Source: Coriobacteriia bacterium (GTDB taxonomy: Bacteria; Actinomycetota; Coriobacteriia; Coriobacteriales; RUG033). From it: DNA of 64,000 bases. Made by a program: the position numbers and the translations under genes. This document shows positions 5,115 through 42,676 of the stretch, one piece after another. Positions within the stretch are counted from its first letter, which is position 1. Every line of letters begins with the position of its first letter. The notes below the pieces were generated by a model. It was given only the letters and a program-made list of their open reading frames with translations. It did not search any database and was not told the origin of the DNA. Location of the stretch: contig JAATFL010000038.1 of NCBI GenBank assembly GCA_015655215.1, positions 2,157 through 66,156 of the forward strand, read 5' to 3'.

Positions 5115-5195
5115 CCGTCTCCTCAAGACCAGACAGCAAAACGCGTGCCAAGGCGCAACCGAGCCTGGACGCGACATCGCGCCACCGACAGCTCC

Positions 5196-23655: not shown

Positions 23656-23990
23656 ACGTAAACACGTGGGAATCTTACACGAGCCACATCAGGTAAACAA
23701 GTCCTATCCGCACGGCGTCCGGTCGAGCGGGGAAGGGATGAGGCAGACGCTTGCGTACCTTGGACAAGCAGATGATATGACACAAGGGCCATGATGGTGA
23801 AAGCACGACGCAATGCAGAAAGAAACCACGTTATACGTACCCAAATGAGGGGCTCTTCCCCTCGTTCCAGAGTATAATGATCGCGATGGTCCCCCTTGGG
23901 AAAAGATATGTACGTCGTTTTGGGTTTTCCCATCGACACCTCGGATGAACTTGCGCCAGTTTGTGTCGTATGGTTTTCGTGAGGAGCCCT

Positions 23991-25502: not shown

Positions 25503-25588
25503 CGCTTCGAGACGGCGCACGCCCATCGTGTGGGTGAACACCGTCTCGAGATTCGTCCCTCGCGCATATACGCCGTTTCCTACCGCTC

Positions 25589-26437
25589 CTACTTATACGA
25601 GTAGAACCCTTCCCCGGTTGCGATACCGAGTTTGCCCTCATCGAGGTACTTCTCCTTGACGATTCTGGAGAAGTTCTGCACATCCGGGTCCTTTGACATC
25701 GACATGATGTGGTAAGCGGTCTTCAAGCCAACGATGTCAAGGTACTGGAACGGCCCTTTGGGGGAACCGGTGCCGATGCGCCAGATAGCGTCGATATCAG
25801 TGGGCTCCGCATATCCACCACCGTACAGCTTTGAGGCGGCATCGAGGAAGGGGACGGAAAGCGAGTTGAGCAGCCATCCGGCCTTCTCCTTCTTGAGGGG
25901 CACGGCGACCATGCCGGTGTCCGTGGCGAACCGTACGACCTGATCGTAGACGGCTGGGTCGGTCTTGGAGGTGGCCATGACCTCGGCGCAGTTCATGGTC
26001 CAGATATGGTTGGCATAATGGAGGCCGAGGAACCTCTCGGGGCATCCCGTCGCATCCATCATGTCGCTCGGGAGCAGTGTGGAGGAGTTCGTGCAGACGA
26101 TGGTCCGATCAGGCAGGACACCTGCGATGCTTCGGTACAATGCACGTTTCTGCTCAAGGTCCTCGGTGATGGCCTCGATGACCATGTCCGCATCCGCGAC
26201 GGCAGCGATGTGGTCCGTGGTGTAGCTGATGTTGGCAAGCCCGTGCGCAATCTGATCGTCCGTGGTGCCGAGTATCTCAGCCTGGTACATGGTGGCGATC
26301 CCCTCGATGGCCTTCTTCGAGGCACTGAGGATGTCATCACTCAAATCGCAAGCCGTGACATTGAAGCCATGCACGGCGGTTTGGAACGTTATCTGCGACC
26401 CGAGAACGCCCACGCCGATGACGGTGATGTTCTTCAT
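25589..26437 (-). CDS. 3-hydroxyacyl-CoA dehydrogenase (Hbd-like), copy 1
   Basis: MKNITVIGVGVLGSQITFQTAVHGFNVTACD NAD Rossmann motif. The C-terminal domain has KEKAGWLLNSL and GPFQYLDIVGL. Confidence 0.85.
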   Translation of the reverse strand: MKNITVIGVGVLGSQITFQTAVHGFNVTACDLSDDILSASKKAIEGIATMYQAEILGTTDDQIAHGLANISYTTDHIAAVADADMVIEAITEDLEQKRALYRSIAGVLPDRTIVCTNSSTLLPSDMMDATGCPERFLGLHYANHIWTMNCAEVMATSKTDPAVYDQVVRFATDTGMVAVPLKKEKAGWLLNSLSVPFLDAASKLYGGGYAEPTDIDAIWRIGTGSPKGPFQYLDIVGLKTAYHIMSMSKDPDVQNFSRIVKEKYLDEGKLGIATGEGFYSYK

Positions 26438-26488
26438 AGTTCCCTCTTCCCAGATTATGAGCATGGATATGCGCTGATGCGCGGAATA

Positions 26489-27349
26489 CTACTTTCTATA
26501 GCTGTAGAAACCCTCACCCGTTGCAATGCCGAGCTTGCCTTCGTCGATGTAATCCGATTTGAGGACCGCGGCGAACTCCTTCGCGCCTGATACCTGGGCC
26601 ATCATGAGCACCTGGTACACGGTCTTGAGACCGATGACGTCCATGATCTCGAACGGACCACGGGGGGCACCGGTGCCGATGCGCCATATCGAGTCGATGT
26701 CCTTGGGTTCTGCATAGCCGCCAGCGTAGAGCAGGCAACCGGAGACGCACAACGGGACCAAGAGCGAGTTGAGCAGCCATCCGGCCTTCTCCTTCTTGAG
26801 CGGCACGGCGACCATGCCGGTGTCCGCGGCGAACTGCACGACCTCGGCAAACGCCGCCGGGTCCGTCTGGTCGGTACCCATGATCTCGGCGGAGTTCTGG
26901 ATCCAGATGTGGTTGGCATAATGGAGGCCGAGGAACTTCCCGGGGCGTCCGGTAAACGCGGCCATATCGCTGGGCAGAAGCGTGGAGGAGTTCGTGCACA
27001 CGATGGTCTTCTCGGGAAGGAGACCCGAGATGTCCTTATAGAACGTCTGCTTCTCCTTGAGGTCCTCGATGATCGCTTCGATCACCAGGTCGGCATCGGC
27101 GACTGCCAGTGCCCGGTCGGTCGTGTAGGTGATGTTGGCGAGCCCGCGTGCGATCTGCTCGGCGCTCGTGCCAGGGATCTCCTTCTGATAGCGCTCGGCG
27201 ATGCCAGCGATACTCTTCTTGGCACGATCGAGACTCTCCGCGCTCCTGCCGCATACGGTGACCCTGAACCCGTGCACCGCCGTCTGGAAGACGATCTGCG
27301 AGCCGAGCACCCCGTTGCCGAATACCGTCACGTTCTTCATGACCGTCAC
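26489..27349 (-). CDS. 3-hydroxyacyl-CoA dehydrogenase (Hbd-like), copy 2
   Basis: MTVMKNVTVFGNGVLGSQIVFQTAVHGFRVTVCG. A tandem paralogue of copy 1. Confidence 0.85.
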   Translation of the reverse strand: MTVMKNVTVFGNGVLGSQIVFQTAVHGFRVTVCGRSAESLDRAKKSIAGIAERYQKEIPGTSAEQIARGLANITYTTDRALAVADADLVIEAIIEDLKEKQTFYKDISGLLPEKTIVCTNSSTLLPSDMAAFTGRPGKFLGLHYANHIWIQNSAEIMGTDQTDPAAFAEVVQFAADTGMVAVPLKKEKAGWLLNSLLVPLCVSGCLLYAGGYAEPKDIDSIWRIGTGAPRGPFEIMDVIGLKTVYQVLMMAQVSGAKEFAAVLKSDYIDEGKLGIATGEGFYSYRK

Positions 27350-27430
27350 TGCCTTCCCTTGGATTTGCCCTTACACACTTACAGCCGCCACGATCCGCAT
27401 CCGACTGGATGCCCGCATGGCGGCATCTGC

Positions 27431-27730
27431 CTAACCGCATCGGTAACTGACGCCAAAGGTCCCTCGCGGATACGTCCACGTAGCCACGCCGCTGTTGCCC
27501 AACTGCCGGCATGCAAGACGGCATGTACCGCATTCGAGGCACCCAACATAATCGAACGCAAGTTTTCCATCGAGAAGCTTGTAGCACTGGGCGGGGCATA
27601 TGTAGAGGCAGGGCTTGTCACTGCACTCAAGGCAACACTCGCATTTGACTACGATATGGGCCTCGCCCTCATCCACGTTGAACTTATCGACCCCGAGCAA
27701 CTCCTCTGCACTCATCCTCTCGATGCTCAT
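27431..27730 (-). CDS. fixX: FixX-type ferredoxin with an additional N-terminal Cys motif
   Basis: MSIERMSAEELLGVDKFNVDEGEAHIVVKCECCLECSDKPCLYICPAQCYKL...FDYVGCLECGTCRLAC...YPRGTFGVSYRCG. ATG 27730 overlaps the fixC stop (ATGA). Confidence 0.8.
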   Translation of the reverse strand: MSIERMSAEELLGVDKFNVDEGEAHIVVKCECCLECSDKPCLYICPAQCYKLLDGKLAFDYVGCLECGTCRLACRQLGNSGVATWTYPRGTFGVSYRCG

Positions 27731-29046
27731 GATCCGTCCCCCTGCCGTAGAACCCGCCTGATCTTCCTGACATCCTTGAGGATTGCACCGAAACCGGTGT
27801 CCCCTTTGATACACGCCTTCAACTTTGGGTAGAGCGGTCTCCTCGAATCGGGGTCGAGGTGGTAGACCGTGGAGAAGATATCGTTTGCCAGTTTCGGGTA
27901 GATCGCAAAGATGCGGGGGTCATCCTCTATCTCGGGAAAGCGCGAGGCCATCTGCATCGCACGGTGTACTCCGAGTGCGTCGAGCTGCTCAGTGTAGACG
28001 GCACCTACATCTTCTGGGACACTGGTGGAGATGATCGCGTTGGCCGCCGCAAGGCCCGACAGGATGGCGAGGTCGATGCCCCGCACCGTGTAACCCTGGT
28101 TGACGGCAAAACCCGCCGCGTCCCCCGCCATGAGGAATCCGGTGCGGAACAGCTTCTCTGGCACAGCTTTGAGGCCGGCTTCGGGACAGAGATGCGCTGA
28201 GTACTCGATGGTGGTCCCGCCTTCGAGCAACGGTCGGATGGCCGGATGCATCTTCACATCCTGAAGCAGGTCGTGCACCGAAAGATGCTTTTGTGCAAGC
28301 ACGCTCGGGAGCAGCACGCACCCGAAGGAGATGCTCTCCCGATTGGTGTAGATGAACACGCCACCGTTGACACCCCTTGCTCCGCCAAGGGCCAGACGCG
28401 ACGCCCCCTCCCCTGCGGCGAGGGCGAAGCGGTCCTCGATGGTCCGTGCCGGCAGCGCAATCGTCTCCTTCGCCCCCACGAGCATATGCTCGACGCGAAC
28501 GTCGTCGATGAGACCGGCCTTCTGCCCCATGAGTGAGTTGGCACCGTCGGCTGCGACGACGATATCCGCAAACATCTCATCTCCGCCGGCACGCACGCCC
28601 ACGATCCCCCCGTCCCTCTCGATCAACTCATCGACGCGGATGCCACAGACGAGCATGGCACCTTTCTCCTCAGCCTGTCCGGAAAGCCACTCGTCGAACG
28701 TGGCACGCAGGACCGTATAGGACTCAGGAACCTTCCCCTCCTCGGCAAATGATGGGTCACCGTAGTCGATGCACAACGATCGTTCGCCATCGAGCATCAT
28801 CATCTGCTCATGGGTCACCTTGCGCTCGAGGGCTTCCTCCGCTTTGGCGGTAAGACCGTTATCGAGCATCTCGAGCGCGTAGGTATAGAACCTTCCACCG
28901 GTCACGTTCTTCGCCCCCGGCGTATCGGCCCTCTCTATCATCAGGACCTGCTTACCAGCCCGTGCCAGGGCATAGGCGCATGCCGCACCAGCCGGACCGG
29001 CACCGATGATGATTGCATCGAAGCGGTCGGATTCCTCCTCGTCCAC
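27727..29046 (-). CDS. fixC: FixC-type FAD-dependent oxidoreductase, copy 2
   Basis: DRFDAIIIGAGPAGAACAYALARAGKQVLMIERADTPGAKNVTGGRFY. Paralogue of 3792-5114. GTG start. Confidence 0.85.
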   Translation of the reverse strand: MDEEESDRFDAIIIGAGPAGAACAYALARAGKQVLMIERADTPGAKNVTGGRFYTYALEMLDNGLTAKAEEALERKVTHEQMMMLDGERSLCIDYGDPSFAEEGKVPESYTVLRATFDEWLSGQAEEKGAMLVCGIRVDELIERDGGIVGVRAGGDEMFADIVVAADGANSLMGQKAGLIDDVRVEHMLVGAKETIALPARTIEDRFALAAGEGASRLALGGARGVNGGVFIYTNRESISFGCVLLPSVLAQKHLSVHDLLQDVKMHPAIRPLLEGGTTIEYSAHLCPEAGLKAVPEKLFRTGFLMAGDAAGFAVNQGYTVRGIDLAILSGLAAANAIISTSVPEDVGAVYTEQLDALGVHRAMQMASRFPEIEDDPRIFAIYPKLANDIFSTVYHLDPDSRRPLYPKLKACIKGDTGFGAILKDVRKIRRVLRQGDGS

Positions 29047-29153
29047 TGCCTCTCACCTCTTCCCTGACCTTGATGGTATTCCTCATGCCGTCCGGGAGGG
29101 ACCGGCACCGTTGTGCCCAGGCCCCTCCCGACATAGAGTGCCTCACGGGGTCT

Positions 29154-30020
29154 TCAGAAGATGCGGTTTGGCTGACCGAAGATCGATGAATCGTACTTGC
29201 CCACGAGCAGCTTGGGAACGATGTCGTTTGCCTGGTCACCCATCGGAGTGAGCCCGAGGAACTTCAGGAGGCCGATGTCAAGCTTGGTCCAGCCACCGCC
29301 CAGGGACTGCACGACCGGCAAAGATGCCCACGGATCGTTGACGGAGGGCTGCAGGTTGACCTTGACGGACATCTTCTCCCAGCTCTTGTATGCCATGCGG
29401 CCGAGGACCTTGATCAGGAAGACGTTCGCGAATACGGGCGCGCCCTTCTCGTTGAACGAGGTACCGTACTTGTAGAAGTATTCGTTGCCATCGTTGACCG
29501 TACCTTCCTTGATGTCGCCGAATATCTGTGCGGCCATGGGGCTGTCGTACTCCCCGAGGTCGCACTCGACGTCGAAGACCTTGACACCCATGCGCTCGAC
29601 GCTCGCATATGCCTTATCGCCCAAGCGGCGCAGGTCGATCTTGTCGGCCGTCTTCTTGGGGATGCCCATACCCTCGCGTCCCTCGAAGACCGCGTTGTCA
29701 CCGCCCGTGAGAAGCATCTCGAACGGATACAGACCCACCTCCTTGCCGTCGGTGACGGGAGTGAGGATGGCCGACTCGAAGTACGAGGTGCAGAAGGTGG
29801 GGTCGTGCACCTCGATGACGTAGGAGGTGACGACGGGTGCGACCATCTGCAGAGGGGCCGGCAGTGCGGCCTTGAGCGCCTCGGGGTCGGTCGCCCAGGT
29901 GACGAACATGCCCTCGCAATCGTGCATCCACGAAGGATTGGCCCTCGTGCTGAGATAGTACTCGATCTCGTCCGGTGTCTTCACAAAACTGCAGTTTCCC
30001 ATGGTCCATGTTCCTTTCAT
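29154..30020 (-). CDS. acetoacetate decarboxylase (ADC) family protein
   Basis: FEGREGMGIPKK matches the ADC-family GRE-x-x-G-x-PKK catalytic-lysine region. The size (~285 aa) and beta-rich composition fit. The start is 30020 or 30002. Confidence 0.55.
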   Translation of the reverse strand: MKGTWTMGNCSFVKTPDEIEYYLSTRANPSWMHDCEGMFVTWATDPEALKAALPAPLQMVAPVVTSYVIEVHDPTFCTSYFESAILTPVTDGKEVGLYPFEMLLTGGDNAVFEGREGMGIPKKTADKIDLRRLGDKAYASVERMGVKVFDVECDLGEYDSPMAAQIFGDIKEGTVNDGNEYFYKYGTSFNEKGAPVFANVFLIKVLGRMAYKSWEKMSVKVNLQPSVNDPWASLPVVQSLGGGWTKLDIGLLKFLGLTPMGDQANDIVPKLLVGKYDSSIFGQPNRIF

Positions 30021-30111
30021 TTCGCTTTCCCGATAAGCCCGTATCGTCCACACGTGCACGTACGCTGCGCATGCGTCCCATGCTGCGCCGTACGGAAACA
30101 CCCTTGCCTCG

Positions 30112-30852
30112 CTATTGCCGCTCCTCGCGTTGCCGGCGATGCATGGCCCTCAACTCACCAACCTCGTCGCACACGTCCTGGAAGTCGCAGTTATTGCAGT
30201 CGTATGCAAGGTGTTCGAGCATCTTGTCCATCGCGACGACTGCCCGGGCCACCTTGTCACCTAATGGCTTGAAACGCCTCACCTCCTCTGCCGAGGAGGT
30301 GACCATGATCACCTCCGCCGCATCGACGTATGGCAAGACCTTGAGTGCTCGGATGAGCTCGTTGCCCAGCACATCGAGCGAGAACCCCTCGTCCAGCGCC
30401 TGTTCGCTCACCCGCCCCCACTCCCTGTTTTGCTGCGGTGCAGCGTGCAGCATGTATCCGGACAGGTCGAGCTTGAGCTTAAGCCGGTCCATCTCCGAAT
30501 AACGGGAGTAAGCGTTTCCCTCGTCGAACCCATGGCCGGAGACGAGCACGACCTTACCGAAGGGGAGCTCCTGCGCATGCGTTTCACGCAGGTCAGGACC
30601 GATAAGCCTGATACGCCCATCGACGACCCGTTGGGCAGCATCGCTCCCCACGTCGGTCCACATGAGGAACGATGTGGACTCGCTTCCTGGCGCTCCCAGC
30701 TCCATGGCCATGTCCCCTGCCAAAATGATCTGGCGTTTGACCCTGGGCCACGAAATCTGGGTGTTGTAGGCAAACGTTCGAGTGCGATCGGCAAGGTCCT
30801 CTGCGCTTACGAGCTTGAGCATCTCATCGATGTAGGTGCTGAACATGGTCAC
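30112..30852 (-). CDS. hypothetical protein resembling the N-terminal/central domain of acetyl-CoA synthase (CdhC/AcsB), truncated before the Ni-binding Cys-Gly-Cys
   Basis: ILAGDMAMELGAPGSE, VVDGRIRLIGPDLRE, REWGRVSEQALDEGF and the C-terminal YDCNNCDFQDVCDEV appear in the same order as remembered CdhC motifs (GMFVELGGPKS, KVTIIGPDLKD, WMRVSKDTAAK, YGCTLCQSFAPTNVC). This recognition is from memory and needs an HMM check. Confidence 0.5.
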   Translation of the reverse strand: MTMFSTYIDEMLKLVSAEDLADRTRTFAYNTQISWPRVKRQIILAGDMAMELGAPGSESTSFLMWTDVGSDAAQRVVDGRIRLIGPDLRETHAQELPFGKVVLVSGHGFDEGNAYSRYSEMDRLKLKLDLSGYMLHAAPQQNREWGRVSEQALDEGFSLDVLGNELIRALKVLPYVDAAEVIMVTSSAEEVRRFKPLGDKVARAVVAMDKMLEHLAYDCNNCDFQDVCDEVGELRAMHRRQREERQ

Positions 30853-30959
30853 CTTCTCTCAAGGTCCGAGTCTCCCTCGGTCTGGCCGTAGACCCTGGTC
30901 TTTGGTATAGGACACCCCGGAGACACTGTGCGCCCACACCGCTCTTGTGAAAGCCCCGG

Positions 30960-31169
30960 TTACACCGTTGCCTCAGGCGCCACCCTCGTGGCAGCCTGAG
31001 CCTGATCCCTCGCCGCATACTCGCTTGCCTTGCGCAGGGCGGCGACCTTCTTGAGGGTGGGTGTCATCCTGGCGACCATCACGTCGTCGAGGTCGAACCA
31101 GTAGATCAACCCCACGGCGATGCCCACGACGCCCAGAGCCGCCGTCACGTTCCCGAAGATGTTCTTCAT
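30960..31169 (-). CDS. small single-TM protein (69 aa), paralogue of 31197-31382
   Basis: MKNIFGNVTAALGVVGIAVGLIYWFDLDDVMVARMTPTLKK... AAGGAGG lies 7 nt upstream of the ATG. Confidence 0.55.
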   Translation of the reverse strand: MKNIFGNVTAALGVVGIAVGLIYWFDLDDVMVARMTPTLKKVAALRKASEYAARDQAQAATRVAPEATV

Positions 31170-31196
31170 CTCGCTACCTCCTTCTTGGACTCGCGC

Positions 31197-31382
31197 CTAC
31201 ATCTGCTTGGAGAGCATGGATTGCGCGACGCGCCTCTCGGTATCCTTCTTGATGTCGTCGAGCTTGAACTTGATGGGAAGTGCCGCCATCTGGAACTTGT
31301 CGTCCAAGTCGTACCGCTCGACCAGGATCGTGACCGCAAAGAGCACTCCGATGATCGAAAGCACTGACTTCAGATCCTTCAT
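31197..31382 (-). CDS. small single-TM protein (61 aa)
   Basis: MKDLKSVLSIIGVLFAVTILVERYDLDDKFQMAALPIKFK... GAGAGGGTGAG RBS. Shares the MK start, the TM helix, the DLDD motif and a downstream Pro/Lys pattern with the 69-aa neighbour. Confidence 0.55.
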   Translation of the reverse strand: MKDLKSVLSIIGVLFAVTILVERYDLDDKFQMAALPIKFKLDDIKKDTERRVAQSMLSKQM

Positions 31383-31495
31383 AGTGACTCACCCTCTCTC
31401 TCGTGTTTCGAACACCCGTCACCGACGCCCGCATCGACACGCGTCCGACCAATCCGCACCCACTCTCCCATCCCGCATGTCTCGTGGTGCAAACC

Positions 31496-32323
31496 TCATG
31501 TGAACTTGCTGGCCAGAGCTTTCCTACGAGCGAACTCACAAGCCCCGATGGCACCCATGAGCTGGGGGTCCGTGTCCAACGTGACGAGCTCGAACCCGAG
31601 CATCCGGTCCATGGCCCGTTTGAGACCCCTGTTCTTGGCGCATCCACCCGCCATCGTGACCTCGCGTTCGATACCCGCGGTCTTGAGCAGGGTGTAGCAG
31701 CGCTTCGACACCGACGCCTGTATCCCGGCTGCGATATCCGCAGGCCGCTTCTTCTGCGCCAGAAGGCTGATGACCTCGCTTTCGGCGAACACCGTGCACT
31801 GCGATGAGATCGGGGTTGGACTGTTGGACTGGAGCGCGAGTTCGCAGAACGCGGGCAGGTCCATCTCGAACGCGCGAGCCATGTTCTCGAAGTAGCGTCC
31901 CGTACCAGCTGCGCACTTGTCGTTCATGGAGAAGTGCCGAACCGAACCATCCCCGTCGACCATGATGCCCTTGATGTCCTGGCCTCCGATGTCGATGATG
32001 GTGCGCACCGCGGGGTTGGTGAGGTGGACGCCCATCGCATGGCAACTGATCTCGGAGACGTTCAGGTCGCAGGTGGGGACGTAATTGCGCCCATATCCGG
32101 TTCCCACGAGATACGCGAGCCCACCTATCGAGGAGAACGCCTCGACCTCCTCACCCGCCGTCTCGATGGCGAGCTGAGCCGTCGACTCGGGGTCCATCTT
32201 GCTGCGCACGATCGACGAGCCCAGGATCGCTCCCGTCGAATCCATGATCACGGCCTTGCCGTAGGTCGACCCCACATCACACCCGCATACCAGTTCGGTC
32301 ACCACGACCGTCTCCCTTCGCAT
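31496..32323 (-). CDS. BcrAD/BadFG-type ATPase, activator of 2-hydroxyacyl-CoA dehydratase-like enzymes (HgdC/HadI-like)
   Basis: CDVGSTYGKAV, IIDIGGQDIKG, NDKCAAGTGRYFE and SQCTVFAESEVISL motifs. The two Cys residues sit at positions typical of the bridging [4Fe-4S]. The start is uncertain (32302-32356). Confidence 0.9.
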   Translation of the reverse strand: MRRETVVVTELVCGCDVGSTYGKAVIMDSTGAILGSSIVRSKMDPESTAQLAIETAGEEVEAFSSIGGLAYLVGTGYGRNYVPTCDLNVSEISCHAMGVHLTNPAVRTIIDIGGQDIKGIMVDGDGSVRHFSMNDKCAAGTGRYFENMARAFEMDLPAFCELALQSNSPTPISSQCTVFAESEVISLLAQKKRPADIAAGIQASVSKRCYTLLKTAGIEREVTMAGGCAKNRGLKRAMDRMLGFELVTLDTDPQLMGAIGACEFARRKALASKFT

Positions 32324-32349
32324 CGGCACGATGGCCGAGAGTCCTTCTC

Positions 32350-34026
32350 CTACCACGCTTGCGAGTCGTCGAATTCGAGAAGGCTCGGATCGAGGGGGTC
32401 GGCGTGCATGACGTTGAACATGAAGTTGTTGATCTGGGTGCGCATGCCCTGGCGGCTGACGACACGCGTGTCGAAGAAGTTGTAATCACACACGCAGACG
32501 GGCACGTGATCCTTGCCCCACTCGTTGAGGAACCCGGTAAGGCTCGTATACCCGCGGCAATTGAGATGGTTCATGTCGAGGATGAAGTCGGGCTGGTACA
32601 TGTCGTTGAGCGTGTTGAGACCATCGATCCAGTTCTCCGCGGGACCACGCATGTGGCGTGCCATCGCCGCGTCGCACCAGCAGTTCGCGAGACCCTCGAG
32701 CATCGTGTCGGGCGTCGACGTGTCGATGGTGTACGCGGTGCCGAACTCCTCCATGTCGTTGACGATCTCGATTCCCCAGCACCGCTCGACCCAACCGTAG
32801 ATGCCCGCGTAATCGAAGGGGGGCGTGCTCCACATGACGGTGCGATAGCGGATGTTCTCGAAACAGGGGGTCTGTGACGCGTAGTTTCGCAACGCGAGTG
32901 CGGTGATGCGCTTGTAGAGATCGACGTCCTCCTGCGTCGAGGCCGCCAGGTGAAACGCCGGCATGTATGCGTAATAGAGTGCATCGCCGGTAAGGGGCGG
33001 GTTCAAGGCGCGGTTGAGGTCCCACAGCTGCGTCCTCATCTTCGTGAGTTCGTTCTTGCGCTCGCACACCTCCTTGAGCCTCACCCAGTTCATCTTCTTA
33101 CCGGTATGCTCTTCGAGGAAGGCGACCATGCCCTTGATGTCCTCCACGAACGTCTTTGCGCCGGGATCCCCTGGATGGAAGTTGTAGGGGACGTCGAGCC
33201 AGTAGGTGGGGATGCCCATCTCCTTGATCATCATGCTGTAACCCTCGAAGTGCGCCTCGCACGGCATGTTGGTGGCGATGAGGCAGGACGCCTTCTTGAA
33301 GTACTCGTCCACCGCGAACATCCCGGGTGTCTGCGTGGAGTACGTGCAGGTGTTGTCGGGAAGACCTTGGGCGTACATCGCGTCGAGGTACTTCTCGGGA
33401 GCATGCTGGTCGTCGAGGCCGATCACGTTAGCCGCCGCCTCGACGAGGAACACCTTGATGCCCATGGCCTGCGTGATCTCGGAGGGGATCATGTCATGGG
33501 TCATGACGGTGTGCTCGGGGTCGGTGATGATGTTCTGCAGGCCTTCGACCGCCGCCTTCGTGGTGAGGACGAGTTCGCGGTACAACGCCTCCTTCGACGC
33601 ACCGGTGCGCCCGCGAGCAAGCGTCTTGGCCAGATGGGTCGTCTTGAGCTCGTCGAGGATCCATGGATAACGGAACATGGCGTCGGTCGTCTTACCTGAC
33701 TCCACCTTGGTGAGTGACATGGAGGCGGCCCACATCTTGAGCCAGTACTTGAAATCGATCCACTGGTCATGTAGGTTCGCCTGCTTATTCTTGTCGAGCG
33801 CAGCCTTGAAGGCAGCCTGTCCCTGGGGACTCGACGCCTTGGCGGCGAACTCCCCCACCTTGCCCACGCCCTTCATCACCGTCTTGTTGATGACCGCTGC
33901 CTTCACCCTGTCATCGACCATGTACGCACTCACGGCCCCGACACCCTTCATGAGCAGAGCGTTCCTGGTCCGCTCGTCGACGAGCGCCCTCTTGAGCGTC
34001 GCCTTGGTCTCCTCTTTCATCTTCAA
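32350..34026 (-). CDS. 2-hydroxyacyl-CoA dehydratase / benzoyl-CoA reductase BcrBC-family (HGD-D) large subunit
   Basis: 558 aa. The core from about residue 150 (VMTHDMIPSEITQAMGIKVFLVE...CLIATNMPCEAHFEGYSMMIKEMGIPTYWLDVPY...) is HgdA/BcrC-like. A ~110-aa Lys/Ala-rich N-terminal extension is present. The start lies 3 nt after the upstream stop. Confidence 0.8.
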   Translation of the reverse strand: MKMKEETKATLKRALVDERTRNALLMKGVGAVSAYMVDDRVKAAVINKTVMKGVGKVGEFAAKASSPQGQAAFKAALDKNKQANLHDQWIDFKYWLKMWAASMSLTKVESGKTTDAMFRYPWILDELKTTHLAKTLARGRTGASKEALYRELVLTTKAAVEGLQNIITDPEHTVMTHDMIPSEITQAMGIKVFLVEAAANVIGLDDQHAPEKYLDAMYAQGLPDNTCTYSTQTPGMFAVDEYFKKASCLIATNMPCEAHFEGYSMMIKEMGIPTYWLDVPYNFHPGDPGAKTFVEDIKGMVAFLEEHTGKKMNWVRLKEVCERKNELTKMRTQLWDLNRALNPPLTGDALYYAYMPAFHLAASTQEDVDLYKRITALALRNYASQTPCFENIRYRTVMWSTPPFDYAGIYGWVERCWGIEIVNDMEEFGTAYTIDTSTPDTMLEGLANCWCDAAMARHMRGPAENWIDGLNTLNDMYQPDFILDMNHLNCRGYTSLTGFLNEWGKDHVPVCVCDYNFFDTRVVSRQGMRTQINNFMFNVMHADPLDPSLLEFDDSQAW

Positions 34027-34029
34027 CCT

Positions 34030-35211
34030 CTATTCCGCCCGAAGTGACAGGTCTGCGTTGAGCCTCTTCATGACGACGCTTTCGACGAACGCCTGGACAC
34101 GTGTCCTCAGTTGCCCTTCGCCACTCAGTTGGTACTCGCGCTCGAAGCGGACTGTTGGTATGCCCGCTTCCTGGCACGCCTTGTCGAGCTTGATGACCTC
34201 CCAACCCCACAGGTCACAGAACTTCATGACCTCGAGCATCACCCCGTCGACCTCGTAGGCGGCGGCCCAGTCGAGCATGTGCTCGATGCGATCGTCGAAC
34301 ATCTCGATCATGCGAGGGCAGTCGCTGTGCTCCATGAAGTGATGCGCGAGGTTGGCGTAGGGGTTGCCGTCCTCGGGGATCGGTTCGAGACCGGGCAGCG
34401 AGCCAAAGCAGTAGCGGTCCGCTACGACGATGCATCCCTGATCCTCGATGAGCTGCGTGAACGCGGGATTGTCGAACCGCGAGCCCATGACCATCACGCG
34501 TGGCACATCTTCCATGAATCCATCGCGTTTATCCAATGCCGTCTTGAGGCTTTTGAGAGGTTTGAGGAGAAGGTCGCGCGGAACAGCCTGGCAGGCGGTG
34601 AATACCGTGTGCCACTCGGTTCCGGAGATCTTGGGGTGGGCGTCGAGACGGAGGTCGGCGATCGACTTGAGCACGGCGTTGAACTCGTTGTACTCCCCGA
34701 TGGCCACGGCGACTGCCGCGTCGGACGTATCGACGCCGTAGTGCTCGGAAAGAGCCCCTCCCAATGTGCGCAGATCCTCCTCGAGCGCGTACATACCCGC
34801 CGGGAAGACCTTGCGGGGGGTGTCGATCACGTAGGAGAGGTAGTTCCGCTTCTCCCCGTTGACCCCTAGGAGCTTGAGATTGTGCTCGACGCGCTGGGTG
34901 TGAACGCAGCTTGCCGCGAACACCACCCCGTCCAGCCAATCGTAGACCCCGTCTAGGCCGGCTTGCAGGATGCAACGTGAATACGAGCAGTTGAACTGCG
35001 ACAGGTAGAAGTCGGCCAACTCGGTGCTCTGAACCTCAGGAGCCCTCAGGTGGATCGGAAACAACCTCCCCACGCTGAGCAACGGAGCGGGGACCATGCA
35101 GCAGTTGTATCCGATGGGCACCCCACCTTCCTCTATCGCCTGTTGCACGAGCGGGTTCTTCGAAGACGCGATAACGTCCTGAAAGACCTTCATCTCCTTC
35201 AACCGTTCCAT
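34030..35211 (-). CDS. 2-hydroxyacyl-CoA dehydratase / BcrBC-family (HGD-D) small subunit
   Basis: MERLKEMKVFQDVIASSKNPLVQQAIEEGGVPIGYNCCMVPAPLL...VFAASCVHTQR...VADRYCFGS...MKFCDLWGWE is HgdB/BcrB-like. ATG 35211 has an AGAGGAAGGGG RBS. The ORF-track extension to 35580 is spurious. Confidence 0.8.
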   Translation of the reverse strand: MERLKEMKVFQDVIASSKNPLVQQAIEEGGVPIGYNCCMVPAPLLSVGRLFPIHLRAPEVQSTELADFYLSQFNCSYSRCILQAGLDGVYDWLDGVVFAASCVHTQRVEHNLKLLGVNGEKRNYLSYVIDTPRKVFPAGMYALEEDLRTLGGALSEHYGVDTSDAAVAVAIGEYNEFNAVLKSIADLRLDAHPKISGTEWHTVFTACQAVPRDLLLKPLKSLKTALDKRDGFMEDVPRVMVMGSRFDNPAFTQLIEDQGCIVVADRYCFGSLPGLEPIPEDGNPYANLAHHFMEHSDCPRMIEMFDDRIEHMLDWAAAYEVDGVMLEVMKFCDLWGWEVIKLDKACQEAGIPTVRFEREYQLSGEGQLRTRVQAFVESVVMKRLNADLSLRAE

Positions 35212-35257
35212 ATGCGCACCACCCCTTCCTCTTGTACGACACCTCACGCGACACGTG

Positions 35258-36136
35258 CTACACGAGCACCCCGAACCTCTTGAGCGCCTGCGCCACCGCG
35301 ACCACCGACGGGTCCGTATCGGGTAGCTCGAGCAAGCTTCTGCCGGCGATGTCGAGTTTTCTGATGGGAGAATCCTCGATGACGCAACCCACCTGGTCGA
35401 TATCCCCCAGGTCGACCAGGTGGGCATCGGCCGGATCGACCACGCGGTTGAGCAGGACACCCACATGCTCGTAGTGCATGACCCCGCCATCGGCGACATC
35501 CCGTATCGTCCTGATGACGTTGATGCCCTTGAGACTGCAATCGGAGACGAGCAGCAGGTGCGTGACCGTCTCGAGCACACGACGGTTGACCTGCTCGATC
35601 CCGGCCTCGCCGTCGATCACGACGTAGTCGAAGCTGGCGACGAGCTCCTCGATGACCTCCTTGAGGTAATCGTTCACCTTGCAATAGCACCCTTCGGTCT
35701 CCGGGCGACCGATGGCGAGAAACGCGAAGTGCTCCCGCTCGGCCATCGCCTCGTACACTCGGTAGTCGAGTTCCTCAAGAATCGCCGCCACGTCCCCGGC
35801 CTCGCCCGTGCGACTGCTCCTGATGACGTCGTTCCTGATCTCATCGACGGTGTGCACCACGTCGACGCCCAACGCCGTGGCAAGGCCCACCGCCGGATCC
35901 GCATCGATGACGAGCACCTTCGCATCCGGACGCTCGGCGAGCAGGATCTTGGTGACCATGGCGGAGACGGAGGTCTTGCCCACGCCACCCTTGCCACATA
36001 TGGCCATGACCGTAGGTCTTGGACCGCCGGTGCCCTGGTGGGAGGCGCAACCGTGTCCGTGCCCATGCTCCTGATCCTGATCATGTTCATGGTCGTGCTC
36101 CTGGTGATGCTGATGCGCCCCACACTCCTCGCACAT
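35258..36136 (-). CDS. CooC/AcsF-like P-loop metallochaperone ATPase with Cys- and His-rich N-terminus
   Basis: MCEECGAHQHHQEHDHEHDQDQEHGHGHGCASHQ, then ICGKGGVGKTSVSAM (deviant Walker A), VIDADP, GCYCKVN (CooC CxC metal site) and IDGEAGIEQ. ATG 36136 has GGAGAGGAGGGA upstream. The alternative GTG 36166 overlaps the fixB stop. Confidence 0.75.
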   Translation of the reverse strand: MCEECGAHQHHQEHDHEHDQDQEHGHGHGCASHQGTGGPRPTVMAICGKGGVGKTSVSAMVTKILLAERPDAKVLVIDADPAVGLATALGVDVVHTVDEIRNDVIRSSRTGEAGDVAAILEELDYRVYEAMAEREHFAFLAIGRPETEGCYCKVNDYLKEVIEELVASFDYVVIDGEAGIEQVNRRVLETVTHLLLVSDCSLKGINVIRTIRDVADGGVMHYEHVGVLLNRVVDPADAHLVDLGDIDQVGCVIEDSPIRKLDIAGRSLLELPDTDPSVVAVAQALKRFGVLV

Positions 36137-36162
36137 AAGACATCCCTCCTCTCCGTGCAACG

Positions 36163-37077
36163 TCACCGTGCCGTGACGAGTGCGTCAGTAAGCAAGGGGA
36201 CCACGGCATACAGGTCACCTACGATGCCAAAATCCGCTTCCCTGAAAATGGGAGCCTTTTCATTCTTGTCGATTGCGACGATCACCTTCGCATCGCGTAC
36301 GCCCACCATGTGCTGCACTTGCCCGGAGACACCCACGGAGAGGTACAGGTCGGGTGCCACACTCACGCCGGATATGCCCACGTACTGCTCAGCGGGAACC
36401 CAGCCCCGCTCCTCGGCGATGCCGCGGGTACAGCCGATCCGTGCATCCAAAGCCGCTGCCAGACCCTCGATCAACGCCATGTCCTCACGCTTCGAGACAC
36501 CCATGCCCACAGAGACGATCCGCGGAGCGCATGACAGGTCGGCCCCCTCTTGCGAGAGCGGCTCCCTCTCCACCAGGTGGACGCGCATATCTGGTTGGAT
36601 GACAATGGTCTCAAGTGGGGAGTCCACACCCCGTACCGCCTCGAAACGCCCTGATGGTATGGTGACGACAACCGGTGTGGAGAATTCCTCCGACCGCACC
36701 ATGGCACCCCCGTACATGAGGCGTTCGGTTGAAAGCTTGCCATCCAGGAGATGCACGGCAGAAACGTCACTGGCCATCCCACACCCGAGATAACCAGCCA
36801 CACGTGCCGCTAGGTCACGACCACGCGGCGTTGCACCTACGGCGAAGAGACTCACTCCCCACTCATCGATCAAACCTGCCAGGGCCCTCGCGTTATTTTC
36901 GGGGATATCACTATCCCCATCGAGCAGAACGACCTTTGATGCGCCACATCCCACAAGCTCGGAAGCTTCCTCGGGACTGAACGTGACGATGGTGACGTCG
37001 TGCTCTTCCTCACGGGCAAAACCTACCAGCTCTGCGGCAAGCGAGGGCTTATCGCTGTAGATGAGAACTTCGTTCAT
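36163..37077 (-). CDS. fixB: electron transfer flavoprotein alpha subunit, FixB type
   Basis: 304 aa. The C-terminus EQYVGISGVSVAPDLYLSVGVSGQVQHMVGVRDAKVIVAIDKNEKAPIFREADFGIVGDLYAVVPLLTDAL parallels E. coli FixB. Confidence 0.9.
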   Translation of the reverse strand: MNEVLIYSDKPSLAAELVGFAREEEHDVTIVTFSPEEASELVGCGASKVVLLDGDSDIPENNARALAGLIDEWGVSLFAVGATPRGRDLAARVAGYLGCGMASDVSAVHLLDGKLSTERLMYGGAMVRSEEFSTPVVVTIPSGRFEAVRGVDSPLETIVIQPDMRVHLVEREPLSQEGADLSCAPRIVSVGMGVSKREDMALIEGLAAALDARIGCTRGIAEERGWVPAEQYVGISGVSVAPDLYLSVGVSGQVQHMVGVRDAKVIVAIDKNEKAPIFREADFGIVGDLYAVVPLLTDALVTAR

Positions 37078-37844
37078 GAGAGCATCCCCTCCTTCTTGAG
37101 CGCGCTCACAAGTGAGGTGACCTTATCGGACGCATCGCCGTCAACAAAGATGACATTCCTCCGGTTGGCGATGAAACCTTGCGATGAGAGAACCTTCGCT
37201 GCGGGTGCAGGGTCGCACCCGAGCTCGGCAATGCCAAGCTCATGCAGTGGCTTCTTTCCGGCGGAGAGAACCGCCTTGAGCCCAGGGATGGGGGGTTCAT
37301 AGCCAGCCGGTAACACTGCGATCACGCAAGGACGGTTCACCGTGACGGTCTCAAGGCAACCGTCGAGCTTGCGCGTCGCGGTGATTGAGTCGCCTTCCAC
37401 CTTCATCTCGATGACCGAGGTGACCGTCGGCCAATCAAGCAGGGCACCGACCCTGGGAGCTATCTGCCGTGCATAGGTATCACTCGCACCCTCGGCGCAG
37501 ATGACGAGCGATGTGCCGTCGATCGTCCGTATCGCGCTTGCGAGCACCTGACTCGTAACCAGGGCGTCAGCGTCGCACGCCGCCGCATCACCGACCCAGT
37601 ACCCCGTCGCCGGCCCACGGCTCAGTGCATCCTTGAGGGATTTGCGCACGTCTGGGGTCCCGAAGGTCAGCGTCGCCGTCGCGTCGCCCGTCTGCGCGGC
37701 GACCTGCATGGTCGCCTCGATGGCACTCTTGTCGAATTCCGAGATCTTGCCACGTGCGTGGCTCACATCGATGGACCGATCCGGGTTGATTACCAGGTCC
37801 TCTTCATCGAGAACCCATTTATAGCAGGCGACGATCGTTGCCAT
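37074..37844 (-). CDS. fixA: electron transfer flavoprotein beta subunit, FixA type
   Basis: MATIVACYKWVLDEEDLVINPDRSIDVSHARGKISEFDKSAIEA (compare E. coli FixA MKIITCYKCVPDEQDI...). GAGGAGGA RBS. 4-nt overlap with fixB. Confidence 0.9.
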   Translation of the reverse strand: MATIVACYKWVLDEEDLVINPDRSIDVSHARGKISEFDKSAIEATMQVAAQTGDATATLTFGTPDVRKSLKDALSRGPATGYWVGDAAACDADALVTSQVLASAIRTIDGTSLVICAEGASDTYARQIAPRVGALLDWPTVTSVIEMKVEGDSITATRKLDGCLETVTVNRPCVIAVLPAGYEPPIPGLKAVLSAGKKPLHELGIAELGCDPAPAAKVLSSQGFIANRRNVIFVDGDASDKVTSLVSALKKEGMLS

Positions 37845-38021
37845 CGGCCATCCTCCTCTTCTTGACGGCATCGTCCTCGACACGGGCTCCCGACCGATGG
37901 GGCCAGTCAGGTCGCACCTGCCATCTGCGACACCATATGTGTTGTCCTTCGAGACATCTCGGCCATCCAGACGTTCTCGGATCGCCGCCGGGAAAGCTCG
38001 CGTGCGCTCTCGCCGATGGAT

Positions 38022-39185
38022 TCACGCCAACGGGTACTTGCCATACCTCATCATCGTGCCGATGAAGTCCTGTAGAGCCTCGATGGAGGCGCCACCGATG
38101 GCAAGGACCTTCGCGTCACGCCAGAAGCGTTCGACTCCGGTCTCGTCGATGCAGCCGACACCGCCGTATATCTGGATGGCCTCGCGAGCGACCTCCTCGG
38201 CCACCTCGGCACCGCGGATCTTGAGCATGCGGCCCTCGCACAGCTCGAGGTTGCCGGCGTCCTTGTCGGCGAGGGTGCCGTAGACGAATGCGCGAAGTTC
38301 CTCGATCATCGTGCGCATCTTCACGAGCTTGAACTTGGTCACCTGGAAACGGTCGTACATGGGCACTCCGTGCTGGATGCGGCTCATGCTGTAGTCGAAG
38401 GCCATCTGGTAGGCGGCCTCGGCCATGCCCAACCCTACCGGACCGCAGATGAGGAACTCGTTGGTGCAGCTCACAGCCGTCGCCTGCATGCACTTTCCCT
38501 CGGGGCCCAAGAGGTGATCCTTGGGGATACGCATGTCGCTGAAGGAGATGGTCCCGGTTGCGGAGCCGTGCCATCCCAGCTTGCGCTCGTAGGAGCCGAT
38601 CGTGAGACCTGAGGTGTTCTTGTCCACGATGAACGCGCTGATGCCGTCACGGGTGATGGGGTCCACCTCGGAGGTCTTGATGAAGATGATGTAGACGTCG
38701 GCGACACCGATGTTGCTCACGAGGACCTTGTTGCCGTTGATGACGTATTCGTCCCCATCGAGCACGGCGTTGGCGGCATGCTCGACATGGTTGTCGCCTC
38801 CTTCGGGTCCAGTCGAACCACAGGCGAAGATGTACTCCCCGCTGCAGAGCTTGGTAAGGTACTTCTCCTTCTGCTCGGGAGTGCCCAGCATGTTGAGCAG
38901 ACCGCCGGCCAACTCCGCGTGCGCGCCCATGTTGACGGTGAGCACCGGAAGCGATTTGGCGATCTCCTCGTAGATGAGCGCGGCGGTGGTGAAGTCCAGA
39001 CCGAGACCGCCGTACTGCTCGGGCATGGTGATGCCGAGGAACCCCAGCTCGCCCGCTCGCTTGAACAGCTGTCCCGGGAATTCGCCCGTCTCGTCGACCT
39101 GCAGCGCAACCGGGGCGACCTCCTTCTCCACGAACTTCTTCGCCGTGTTGACCATCAGTTGGCGATCCTCATTCATGTACCACAC
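38022..39185 (-). CDS. acyl-CoA dehydrogenase
   Basis: 387 aa. MNEDRQLMVNTAKKFVEKEVAP...GITMPEQYGGLGLDF...IQIYGGVGCIDETGVERFWRDAKVLAIGGASIEAL. GTG 39185 has GGAGAGGA upstream. Confidence 0.9.
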   Translation of the reverse strand: MWYMNEDRQLMVNTAKKFVEKEVAPVALQVDETGEFPGQLFKRAGELGFLGITMPEQYGGLGLDFTTAALIYEEIAKSLPVLTVNMGAHAELAGGLLNMLGTPEQKEKYLTKLCSGEYIFACGSTGPEGGDNHVEHAANAVLDGDEYVINGNKVLVSNIGVADVYIIFIKTSEVDPITRDGISAFIVDKNTSGLTIGSYERKLGWHGSATGTISFSDMRIPKDHLLGPEGKCMQATAVSCTNEFLICGPVGLGMAEAAYQMAFDYSMSRIQHGVPMYDRFQVTKFKLVKMRTMIEELRAFVYGTLADKDAGNLELCEGRMLKIRGAEVAEEVAREAIQIYGGVGCIDETGVERFWRDAKVLAIGGASIEALQDFIGTMMRYGKYPLA

Positions 39186-40890: not shown

Positions 40891-41571
40891 CTACTTCGCC
40901 TCGTTGAAGTTGAAACGATACCCGATCTTGCGCAGCGTCACGATCTCGGACCTTGAGCCCACGAAGCTGAGCTTCTTGCGGAGGAAGGAGATGTAGGCCT
41001 CGACGTTATTGTCCGCCGCATCGCTGTCGACCCCCCATACCTTGTCGATGAGCATGTCCTTCGTCACGGTGGTGCGTGCGTTCGCCATGAGGAGGTTGAG
41101 TACCGAGAACTCCTTGTAACTCAGGTGCACGACCTTGCCCACGCAGGTCAGGTCGTGGGTTTGCAGGTCGAGCATCAGATCACCGACCTTGAGTTCATCG
41201 AGCACCACCGCCCCCTCACGTCGCATGAGCGCACGAAGGCGGGCAAGAAGCTCTGCTGGCTGGAACGGCTTGGTCATATAGTCGTCGGCGCCGCTATCGA
41301 GACCCTGTACCTTATCGGAGAGCTCTCCTTTCGCGGTGAGCATGATGGTCGGGGTCGCAATCCCCTTGTGACGCAACTCGCGGACGATGGAGAACCCATC
41401 CCGCCCGGGAAGCATCACATCGCACACGAAGACGTCGTAGTCGCCCATCTCCGCGTAGATGAGGCCGTCGCTTCCGTTGTACACCGCATCGACCTGGTAG
41501 TGGGCGTCCTCGAGGATGCGGACGAGGGCATCCGAGAGACGCCGCTCATCCTCTGCGATCAGAACCTTCAT
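40891..41571 (-). CDS. OmpR-family response regulator
   Basis: MKVLIAEDERRLSDALVRILEDAHYQVDAVYNGSDGL...DVMLPGRDG receiver domain. C-terminal winged helix (LSYKEFSVLNLL...VTLRKIGYRF). ATG 41571 is preceded by GGAGG. Confidence 0.9.
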   Translation of the reverse strand: MKVLIAEDERRLSDALVRILEDAHYQVDAVYNGSDGLIYAEMGDYDVFVCDVMLPGRDGFSIVRELRHKGIATPTIMLTAKGELSDKVQGLDSGADDYMTKPFQPAELLARLRALMRREGAVVLDELKVGDLMLDLQTHDLTCVGKVVHLSYKEFSVLNLLMANARTTVTKDMLIDKVWGVDSDAADNNVEAYISFLRKKLSFVGSRSEIVTLRKIGYRFNFNEAK

Positions 41572-41794
41572 GATAGCCTCCGTCTTCGCGTCGCCATGCA
41601 TCGTCGCCACGCATGTCTCATACCCGTCGCACACCCACGCTTGCGTGCGAGGATGATACCCGACGAGCCTGAAGCTAACCTGAAAAACCCTCACACTCAC
41701 TCCACAACCACCGAGCCCGTCAGGGAGCAGCCATCTTTCAGGGCCTTTTCAGGTTACATCCCTAGGATACGTTCGGCGACACTTCTTCGCCACG

Positions 41795-42646: not shown

Positions 42647-42676
42647 CCGCACGTCCCCACGCAGAAAGGCACCTCC

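Follow-up and report, generated by a model that had tools for sequence, protein, structure and literature searches.

We propose that 15 co-directional genes at 25589–39185 on the minus strand of a 64,000-nucleotide stretch of Coriobacteriia bacterium DNA (contig JAATFL010000038.1, positions 2,157–66,156; hereafter the window), identified by Pfam domains and gene calls, form an operon that acts as one unit. It would be built around an ATP-driven low-potential reductase of the benzoyl-CoA reductase (BCR)/2-hydroxyacyl-CoA dehydratase/double-cubane superfamily that is fed with electrons by FixABCX. We assign this reading a probability of roughly 0.55. In operon order, the genes encode an acyl-CoA dehydrogenase (ACAD), FixA and FixB, a CooC-like ATPase, the beta and alpha subunits of an HGD-fold enzyme, an activase, two mini-proteins, a CdhC-like protein related to acetyl-CoA synthase (ACS), a protein of the acetoacetate decarboxylase family (ADC-like), FixC and FixX, and two members of the 3-hydroxyacyl-CoA dehydrogenase family (3HCDH). 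The genes from the CooC-like ATPase to the CdhC-like protein, with one or two mini-peptides, recur together in distant relatives and are referred to as the module.

The best PDB match of the beta subunit was BzdN (2e-27), with HadC at 2e-20. Six of its cysteines (Cys37/75/102/268/298/332) are invariant in 68 of 68 homologues and align one-to-one with BzdN Cys36/73/100/263/293/327, which ligate the [8Fe-9S] double-cubane cluster (PMC11971306). According to the BzdNO structure paper, dehydratases have lost the double-cubane cysteines, and within the superfamily a retained double cubane is linked to the accumulation of two or more low-potential electrons (PMC11971306). In our alignment, HadC lacks equivalents of beta Cys37 and Cys268, and the double-cubane cluster protein (DCCP) has three, which fall in the aligned half. 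Judged by alignment, the beta subunit thus possesses the complete six-cysteine [8Fe-9S] signature. Because this full signature is retained, we interpret the alpha-beta pair as an ATP-driven reductase and not as a dehydratase.

In the alpha subunit, Cys225, Cys254 and Cys488 are conserved in 98–100% of 74 homologues. In the pairwise alignment, Cys225 and Cys254 correspond to BzdO Cys95 and Cys128, which bind the catalytic [4Fe-4S]-OH2 cluster (PMC11971306); Cys488 lies outside this alignment. At the sequence level, alpha therefore carries the cysteines predicted to bind an open-site catalytic [4Fe-4S] cluster. The AlphaFold2 (AF2) model of alpha (pLDDT 83) matched BzdO and HadB best (target-normalised TM ~0.75), and the protein has a helical N-terminal extension of ~170 aa. 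The PDB matches of the activase were HadI (4e-57), MbdQ (1e-54) and also HgdC. One activase gene is present in the window and in all relatives that carry Etf/Fix genes, and two occur in a BCR-like unit of the Desulfobacterota loci described below. Homologues of the large HGD subunit are rare, with 38 matches among 8000 scored candidates from a 5.8-billion-sequence database, and none of the seven module proteins passes the cut-off of any NCBIfam model.

The CooC-like ATPase has CooC1 (3kje; 2e-12) as its best PDB match, an invariant GKGGVGKT motif (deviant Walker A P-loop), and Cys57 and Cys160-x-Cys162 that are invariant in 52 homologues. The protein of the window begins with a His-rich tail (35990–36136, minus strand; HQHHQEHDHEHDQDQEHGHGHG). 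His/Cys-rich tails were found only in the window, in L005 (shorter, Cys/His) and in L057 (Cys-rich), and a His-rich tail is absent in the homologues from Bacillota and Desulfobacterota. The CdhC-like protein aligns solely with residues 326–475 of Moorella ACS, the A2 domain, and a Foldseek search of the PDB with its AF2 model (pLDDT 88.5) returned only ACS (23 matches, probability 1.0). Its invariant Trp143 aligns with Trp405 of the Clostridium autoethanogenum ACS (CaACS), which stacks on the adenine of acetyl-CoA in an enzyme whose ligand contacts are mainly in A2 (bioRxiv 10.1101/2024.08.05.606187). Close to the C terminus, the invariant Cys217/220/226 form a CxxCx5C motif that corresponds to the first cysteines of the A-cluster. 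Only 18 residues follow the third of these cysteines, so that the A3 domain with the Ni-Ni site is absent, and conservation is lacking at the positions aligned to Arg383 and His386, two residues close to the A-cluster. When 1.84 billion representative proteins were searched with a profile, 281 family members were retrieved at E ≤1e-30; among the best 150, nearly all are stand-alone proteins of ~240 residues, apart from some truncated fragments. By alignment and structural model, the CdhC-like protein is an ACS A2 domain with a predicted CoA-binding surface. Neither carbon monoxide dehydrogenase (CODH) nor full ACS nor a corrinoid protein was found in the neighbourhood in the window, and the 244-aa protein is the only candidate there for an ACS-related client of the ATPase.

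The mini-proteins are paralogous and consist of one N-terminal transmembrane (TM) helix followed by a (Y)WFDLDD motif. Compared with the 81–87% identical relative L086, their genes show synonymous to non-synonymous changes of 17:8 and 22:13; by this measure of sequence change, both are real genes under purifying selection. An ORF at 30824–31018, considered as a third small gene, was judged spurious. Among the related loci, mini-peptides are present only where Etf/FixCX genes are also found.

EtfB, EtfA, an ETF-QO-like FixC and a ferredoxin-like FixX are all encoded in the operon, as two separated pairs. FixC matches the Thermotoga maritima FixC (7koe_C; 1e-57) of a membrane-associated, electron-bifurcating EtfABCX complex, and the best NCBIfam models for the Fix proteins were E. 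coli FixC/FixX, YdiQ/FixA, YdiR/FixB and YdiS, all scoring below the curated cut-offs. The best PDB match of the ACAD was Bcd of the Clostridioides difficile Bcd-EtfAB complex (5ol2_C; 1e-65) and its best NCBIfam model was the clostridial acryloyl-CoA reductase AcrC, again below the cut-off. In an alignment with Chromobacterium ADC (3bgt), the Lys-Lys pair and the Glu are shared by the ADC-like protein, and a Cys takes the position of the N-terminal Arg; we take these ADC residues to be catalytic. Hbd1, one of the two 3HCDH proteins, passes the NCBIfam model PRK08293 (360 bits; cut-off 312).

A scan of one genome per species resulted in 78 distinct related loci. The module was found in Desulfosporosinus fructosivorans (L003), two Syntrophomonas metagenome-assembled genomes (MAGs; L008, L009), other Bacillota (L007, L084), L002, an Actinomycetes MAG (L005), a metagenomic contig of identical gene order (L090) and the close window relative L086. 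In the Bacillota and Actinomycetota relatives it always occurs with EtfBA, FixCX and ACAD, and usually with a Tdh-like zinc-dependent alcohol dehydrogenase (Zn-ADH). The fixABCX genes are contiguous in L003, L007, L008, L009 and L084, and in L002, L005, L086 and L090 they show exactly the split of the window. A further arrangement splits them differently (L089: CooC-CdhC-ZnADH-EtfBA-ACAD-activase-mini-beta-alpha-mini-FixCX). The gene set thus remains intact through at least four gene orders and across phyla.

In the window, the module occupies the 6 kb that separate fixB from the ADC-like gene, and its GC content (0.608) equals that of the flanks (0.59–0.61) in a window that ranges from 59 to 67%. 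The conserved module, the permuted gene order and the GC content equal to the flanks together show that the split represents one permutation and not a foreign interruption. The distance between fixAB and fixCX reflects a lineage-specific permutation of a conserved set of ~12 genes and not an interrupted operon. A recent foreign insertion of the module was rejected on the basis of its GC content and of its association with Fix genes, which is kept across relatives. The original prediction had described a canonical fixABCX unit split by inserted genes, but the supposed insert is the conserved module itself and the order of the fix genes is permuted among relatives. The four fix genes (27431–29046 and 36163–37844) have a lower GC content at third codon positions (GC3; 0.66–0.74) than the other operon genes and one housekeeping gene (0.76–0.87), which is compatible with a common history of the fix genes.

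The seryl-tRNA synthetase (SerRS) of the window shares ~70% identity with its counterparts in Raoultibacter and Atopobiaceae, which places the source among the uncultured Coriobacteriia. The coordinates in Table 1 are those of ATG-start gene calls mapped onto the window. Intergenic gaps inside the operon are all ≤177 nt, with 107–177 nt at the block borders, and EtfB/EtfA as well as FixC/FixX overlap by 4 nt. Pfam bore out every gene assignment and the gene order of the original prediction; its maximal gap of 177 nt was reproduced by the mapped gene calls, and the translational coupling it had proposed for fixA/fixB and fixC/fixX agrees with the overlap at each pair. It had also noted the lack of a CoA-activating enzyme in cis. 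Between 25.5 and 39.2 kb, Pfam detected neither a CoA ligase nor a CoA-transferase domain, and the same is true of most relatives.

Table 1 Features of the operon, its surroundings and the 1–10.8 kb cluster, in window coordinates.
Feature	Position	Strand	Basis or context
ACAD (Bcd-type acyl-CoA dehydrogenase/enoyl-CoA reductase)	38022–39155	−	four ACAD Pfam domains
EtfB/FixA	37074–37844	−	Pfam ETF
EtfA/FixB	36163–37077	−	Pfam ETF_alpha
CooC-type P-loop ATPase (metallochaperone family), His-rich N-terminal tail	35258–36136	−	PDB CooC1 match
HGD-fold beta (small) subunit, 393 aa, predicted [8Fe-9S] double-cubane carrier	34030–35211	−	Pfam HGD-D, 5e-72
HGD-fold alpha (large) subunit, 556 aa, predicted catalytic [4Fe-4S] subunit	32350–34020	−	Pfam HGD-D
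Single activase-type ATPase (HgdC/HadI/BzdQ family)	31496–32323	−	Pfam BcrAD_BadFG, 1e-52
Mini-TM protein, 61 aa	31197–31382	−	gene calls, conservation
Mini-TM protein, 69 aa	30960–31169	−	gene calls, conservation
CdhC-like protein, 244 aa, predicted stand-alone ACS middle (A2) domain	30112–30846	−	Pfam PF03598 CdhC, 1e-10
Divergent ADC-like protein	29154–30002	−	Pfam PF06314 ADC, 6e-34
FixC	27727–29046	−	PDB and NCBIfam best match
FixX	27431–27730	−	NCBIfam best match
Two tandem 3HCDH-family genes (Hbd)	26489–27340 and 25589–26437	−	Pfam 3HCDH_N, 3HCDH
GC-rich hairpin without U-tract, ADC-FixC gap	29093–29130	−	minimum free energy (MFE) z-score −2.1
Strong GC-rich hairpin without U-tract, FixX-Hbd2 gap	27384–27424	−	folding analysis
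Terminal hairpin past the last operon gene, common to the convergent LuxR gene	25507–25550	−	folding analysis
Response regulator	40891–41601	−	Pfam Response_reg and Trans_reg_C
Histidine kinase	39361–40884	−	Pfam HisKA and HATPase_c
Polytopic membrane LuxR-type regulator, convergent with the operon	23961–25502	+	Pfam GerE
Second FixC	3792–5177	−	1–10.8 kb cluster
Second FixX	about 3508–3792	−	1–10.8 kb cluster

A second genomic context was represented by ~50 loci from Desulfobacterota and Spirochaetota (Smithella, Syntrophaceae, Desulfomonilia, Desulfosudis oleivorans, Desulfocicer). Here a BCR-like unit made up of two HGD subunits plus two activase-type ATPases is followed by the CdhC-like, CooC-like and beta genes, in some cases a gene for a ferredoxin-domain protein, and then alpha and activase; these loci contain neither Etf, Fix and ACAD genes nor mini-peptides. 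A gene for a 445-aa protein without Pfam match is often located upstream (L011–L082; e.g. L083, 787–11560), and the vicinity frequently includes genes for ferredoxin-domain proteins, a GMC oxidoreductase, AOR or a 4HBT thioesterase; no CoA ligase or CoA-transferase was seen at these loci. At L091, the BCR-like unit stands alone in front of the CdhC-like/CooC-like pair. Across the 46 loci with full flanks, both genes of this pair were present in 36, neither in eight, and only the CdhC-like gene in two.

The genes around the module differ between relatives. The ADC-like gene is present in L002, L005, L007, L086 and L090 and absent in the others, and in place of 3HCDH relatives have a Tdh-like Zn-ADH, a short-chain dehydrogenase/reductase (SDR) or a FadB-like fusion. 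Downstream of the module, L010 encodes an enoyl-CoA hydratase (ECH), a CoA-transferase, a FadB-like fusion and a thiolase. Otherwise, nearly all related loci of either type lack CoA-activating genes, and no CoA-transferase occurs in the nine other arrangements of the Etf/Fix type (L002, L003, L005, L007, L008, L009, L084, L089, L090). Taken together, the ACAD, 3HCDH and ADC-like genes of the window and the ECH, thiolase, SDR and Zn-ADH genes of its relatives suggest that beta-oxidation-type CoA-ester chemistry surrounds the radical step, which is supported by the gene content of L010. The variation also implies that substrates may differ among the relatives, and we agree with the original prediction that the substrate of the window operon cannot be deduced from its sequence. 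The ACAD itself is 63–65% identical to the cluster ACADs of Desulfosporosinus and Syntrophomonas, Bacillota with contiguous fix genes, and only 28–29% identical to those at the same position in L002 (3719–4873) and L005 (1934–3091), which share the gene order of the window. This low identity suggests gene replacement.

Combining these features, we envisage that the FixABCX-type flavoprotein would oxidise NADH and bifurcate the electrons. The high-potential electron would pass to menaquinone via FixC, to an enoyl-CoA via the Bcd-type ACAD, or to both. The low-potential electron would reach the activase through the ferredoxin-like FixX, and the activase, at the expense of ATP, would drive electrons through the double cubane to a substrate at the alpha cluster. 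The ACAD, the two 3-hydroxyacyl-CoA dehydrogenases and the ADC-family enzyme, the last presumably by Schiff-base chemistry, would act on a CoA thioester that is either the product or the substrate of the reductase. AcsF and ACS stand in a chaperone–client relationship, and by analogy the ACS-like protein is probably a client whose metal site is matured by the CooC-like ATPase, and it probably also binds the CoA moiety. The two mini-peptides could tether the complex near the membrane-associated FixCX.

Several observations weigh against an ATP-driven reductase at the centre of a single unit. The six-cysteine argument is based on alignment and not on a structure of this beta subunit, alpha is equally close to the dehydratase HadB and the reductase BzdO in the model comparison, and a single homodimer-type activase is the arrangement of dehydratases and DCCP, not of BCR. 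Moreover, eight loci have alpha, beta, the activase and the six cysteines with no CooC-like or CdhC-like gene nearby, from which it follows that the double cubane does not depend on the accessory pair. The accessory enzymes (Zn-ADH, SDR, ECH, ADC, 3HCDH, thiolase) vary among relatives, and the internal hairpins listed in Table 1 could split the operon into separate transcripts. A role of the CooC-like protein as assembly factor for the double cubane was also considered and is weakened by the same eight loci and by BzdN and DCCP, which have the six cysteines without a CooC-like gene.

The original prediction favoured a reductive 2-hydroxy- or 3-hydroxyacyl-CoA pathway with FixABCX in place of plain EtfAB. 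In its canonical form, a 2-hydroxy acid would be activated in trans by a CoA-transferase and dehydrated by a 2-hydroxyacyl-CoA dehydratase, and the resulting enoyl-CoA would be reduced by the ACAD, in parallel to the Fld, Had and Lcd/Acr systems. The HGD-fold alpha-beta pair with its single homodimer-type activase, the fit of the alpha model to HadB as well as to BzdO, and AcrC as the best, if sub-threshold, model for the ACAD are all in line with such a pathway, as are two CoA-transferase genes 16–30 kb away and the CoA-transferase in cis in L010. The comparison with clostridial clusters combining a dehydratase with ACAD and Etf was a fair first analogy, given that the ACAD is closest to C. 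difficile Bcd. Yet all six double-cubane cysteines are kept in beta, the operon encodes no 2-hydroxyacid dehydrogenase, a CoA-transferase is found neither in the window operon nor in the nine Etf/Fix-type arrangements, the HadB and HadC models score far below their cut-offs, and the CooC-like and ACS-like partners are left without a role. We consider this pathway unlikely. What stands of the earlier proposal is the combination of an HGD enzyme, an activase, an ACAD and a FixABCX-type Etf; the canonical 2-hydroxyacyl-CoA dehydratase is not supported, in view of the six beta cysteines and the CooC/ACS partners.

A more far-reaching interpretation would give the accessory pair a catalytic function. 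The ACS fragment, composed of A2 and three cysteines, and the CooC-type ATPase that matures it would have been recruited as obligatory partners, with the ACS-like protein as a CoA-binding metallo-subunit that forms the thioester or presents CoA to the radical intermediate. The complex would then make an acyl-CoA from a non-activated substrate, and a separate ligase or transferase would not be needed. The invariance of the adenine-stacking Trp and of the three-cysteine A-cluster remnant, the concordant presence or absence of the CooC/AcsF-type and ACS-like genes in 44 of 46 loci, and the metal-binding His-rich tail of the window ATPase are consistent with this idea, which would also account for the lack of CoA-activating genes at nearly all loci of either type. 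On the other hand, the A3 Ni-Ni domain is absent, the positions of Arg383 and His386 are unconserved, L010 carries a CoA-transferase, the chemistry has no precedent, and the pair could also be an assembly factor with its scaffold or a clamp for the substrate tail. Both the recruitment as obligatory partners and the proposed thioester formation appear improbable to us. We give the least credence to a mosaic of independently regulated units (ACAD-EtfBA, the HGD module, FixCX and the hbd genes) that came to adjoin by rearrangement. Such a mosaic could account for the wider gaps at the block borders, the two strong internal hairpins that lack U-tracts (ADC-FixC and FixX-Hbd2 gaps), the low GC3 of the four fix genes relative to their neighbours and an ACAD whose counterparts in L002 and L005 are not its orthologues. 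It is at odds with a gene set that stays together across phyla and through all the gene orders observed, with the common orientation of all genes and with the co-variation of the mini-peptides with Etf/FixCX; a search limited to the sigma-70 consensus also found no promoter-like site.

Signals for transcription and its control were analysed along the operon. A terminator scan detected as many hairpin-plus-T-run sites as expected from shuffled sequences, with one weak and intragenic site on the coding strand. This agrees with the original prediction, which reported no strong hairpin with U-tract inside the operon, but two strong hairpins without U-tract are present. The stem of the hairpin in the ADC-FixC gap is retained in both L086 and L087, and a C-to-T change leaves a G-U pair in place; this hairpin is a possible attenuator or processing site. 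Both internal hairpins may act as attenuators or RNA-processing sites in an organism whose terminators may lack U-tracts. No promoter-like site was found in the operon by the sigma-70 consensus scan, which is uninformative for an actinobacterium with 61% GC, and no Rfam family matched between 24 and 42 kb. The histidine kinase and response regulator genes lie directly upstream on the same strand, separated from the ACAD gene by a 205-nt gap, and are candidate regulators of the operon; relatives have other regulators at this position (sigma-54 activators, a histidine kinase with a sigma-54 response regulator, or LuxR). The LuxR-type protein is a possible second regulator. Beside the cluster, GerE/LuxR regulators also occur in L005, L089 and L090, and sigma-54 activators in the Bacillota relatives. 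Genes with a VTC domain and DUF4956 (41795–43369, plus strand), divergent from the response regulator, appear unrelated to the operon.

A second locus of the window, the 1–10.8 kb cluster (590–11002, minus strand), encodes an ECH, a 692-aa flavoprotein resembling old yellow enzyme (OYE) and 2,4-dienoyl-CoA reductase, FixX, FixC, two transporters of the major facilitator superfamily (MFS) and two CaiB-type family III CoA-transferases. It looks like a separate pathway of CoA-ester reduction. The original prediction had placed a ligase and CoA-transferases in this cluster, together with fixCX lacking fixAB. Two CoA-transferases and a fixCX pair without EtfAB are indeed encoded there, but no ligase is present. 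The proposal that both loci work together was not upheld, as neither the CoA-transferases nor the OYE-like reductase of this cluster had a tblastn match in 82 loci (the 78 distinct related loci and four look-up copies). In addition, the CoA-transferase of L010, the only one encoded in cis in a relative, belongs to a different family from those of the window, and the two window loci are separated by housekeeping genes (peptidase M29, LemA, SerRS, PdxS). Given the missing tblastn matches, the lack of a ligase and the intervening housekeeping genes, a functional link is unsupported. An ECH is found in cis in several relatives, so the ECH of the 1–10.8 kb locus may be supplied in trans.

The BCR/dehydratase/double-cubane superfamily performs some of the hardest reductions in anaerobes, and few of its substrates are known. 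The module extends over Coriobacteriia, Bacillota (Syntrophomonas, Desulfosporosinus), Desulfobacterota (Smithella, Desulfosudis) and Spirochaetota, and in the Gram-positive lineages it comes with a built-in FixABCX electron supply. If our interpretation as a FixABCX-fed reductase is correct, it would assign a physiological function to a double-cubane enzyme, add a new client to those of CooC-type chaperones and reveal a new use of FixABCX. The cultured carrier Desulfosporosinus fructosivorans 63.6F makes the proposal testable. We found no published description of the gene set in the full-text literature searched. The SAO selenoprotein locus, which has been linked to double-cubane proteins, was considered as a relative and judged unrelated, as the SAO paper mentions neither CooC nor CdhC. 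The four-gene cluster of the Eggerthellaceae steroid 21-dehydroxylase was also considered, since ketyl chemistry on an alpha-hydroxy ketone would fit, and was dropped because no link emerged.

Among characterised systems, the class I BCRs of the Bzd/Mbd type (BzdNOPQ, 8s02; MbdONPQ, 9gai) share with the window operon a BcrAD_BadFG ATPase, a beta subunit that is closest to BzdN and has its six cysteines, and an alpha subunit that keeps the catalytic-cluster cysteines of BzdO and fits its fold. They differ in having two distinct BcrAD_BadFG subunits instead of one ATPase gene, and the window proteins score far below the respective models (BzdN, 91 bits vs. a cut-off of 454; BzdO, 32 vs. 449). 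Furthermore, the window alpha subunit bears its long N-terminal extension, CooC-like, ACS-A2-like and mini-peptide genes stand alongside, and the window lacks a dienoyl-CoA hydratase, Had (6-hydroxycyclohex-1-ene-1-carbonyl-CoA dehydrogenase) and Oah. With the dehydratases HadBC/HadI, FldBC/FldI and LcdAB/LcdC with acryloyl-CoA reductase-EtfAB, the operon has in common the alpha-beta HGD fold, the single homodimer-type activator and a Bcd-type ACAD with Etf in the neighbourhood. The window beta subunit, however, has all six cluster cysteines where HadC lacks two, and the window contains CooC-like, ACS-like and FixCX proteins in place of a CoA-transferase and a 2-hydroxyacid dehydrogenase. DCCP with its reductase DCCP-R (6eno, 7yyl) likewise combines the six-cysteine double-cubane signature with a homodimer-type ATP-dependent reductase partner, but DCCP is a homodimer encoded by one gene, in contrast to the window heterodimer with its distinct catalytic alpha subunit, and the window subunits reach 110 and 37 bits with the DCCP model NF040772 (cut-off 350).

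The FixABCX/EtfABCX systems (T. maritima, 7koe; E. coli FixABCX-CaiA and YdiQRST-YdiO) comprise the same four protein families, and the pairing with an ACAD is as in E. coli. The window proteins differ from them by scores below the NCBIfam cut-offs, by the position of fixAB apart from fixCX and by the coupling to an HGD-type enzyme, which to our knowledge has not been described for any Fix system. CODH/ACS with its Ni-insertion ATPases CooC/AcsF resembles the window in the proximity of a CxC-containing CooC-type ATPase to an ACS homologue and in the conserved CoA-binding Trp, whereas the window keeps only A2 and three cluster cysteines and has no A3, no Cys-Gly-Cys, no CODH and no corrinoid protein. 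We know of no dehydratase with a CooC-type ATPase and an ACS middle-domain partner, and of no report of this combination for the superfamily. If the ACS-derived subunit were catalytic, the system could be more than a variant of the BCR/2-hydroxyacyl-CoA dehydratase/DCCP superfamily coupled to FixABCX. As it stands, the module defines a distinct branch of this superfamily that, in the Gram-positive lineages, is coupled to FixABCX.

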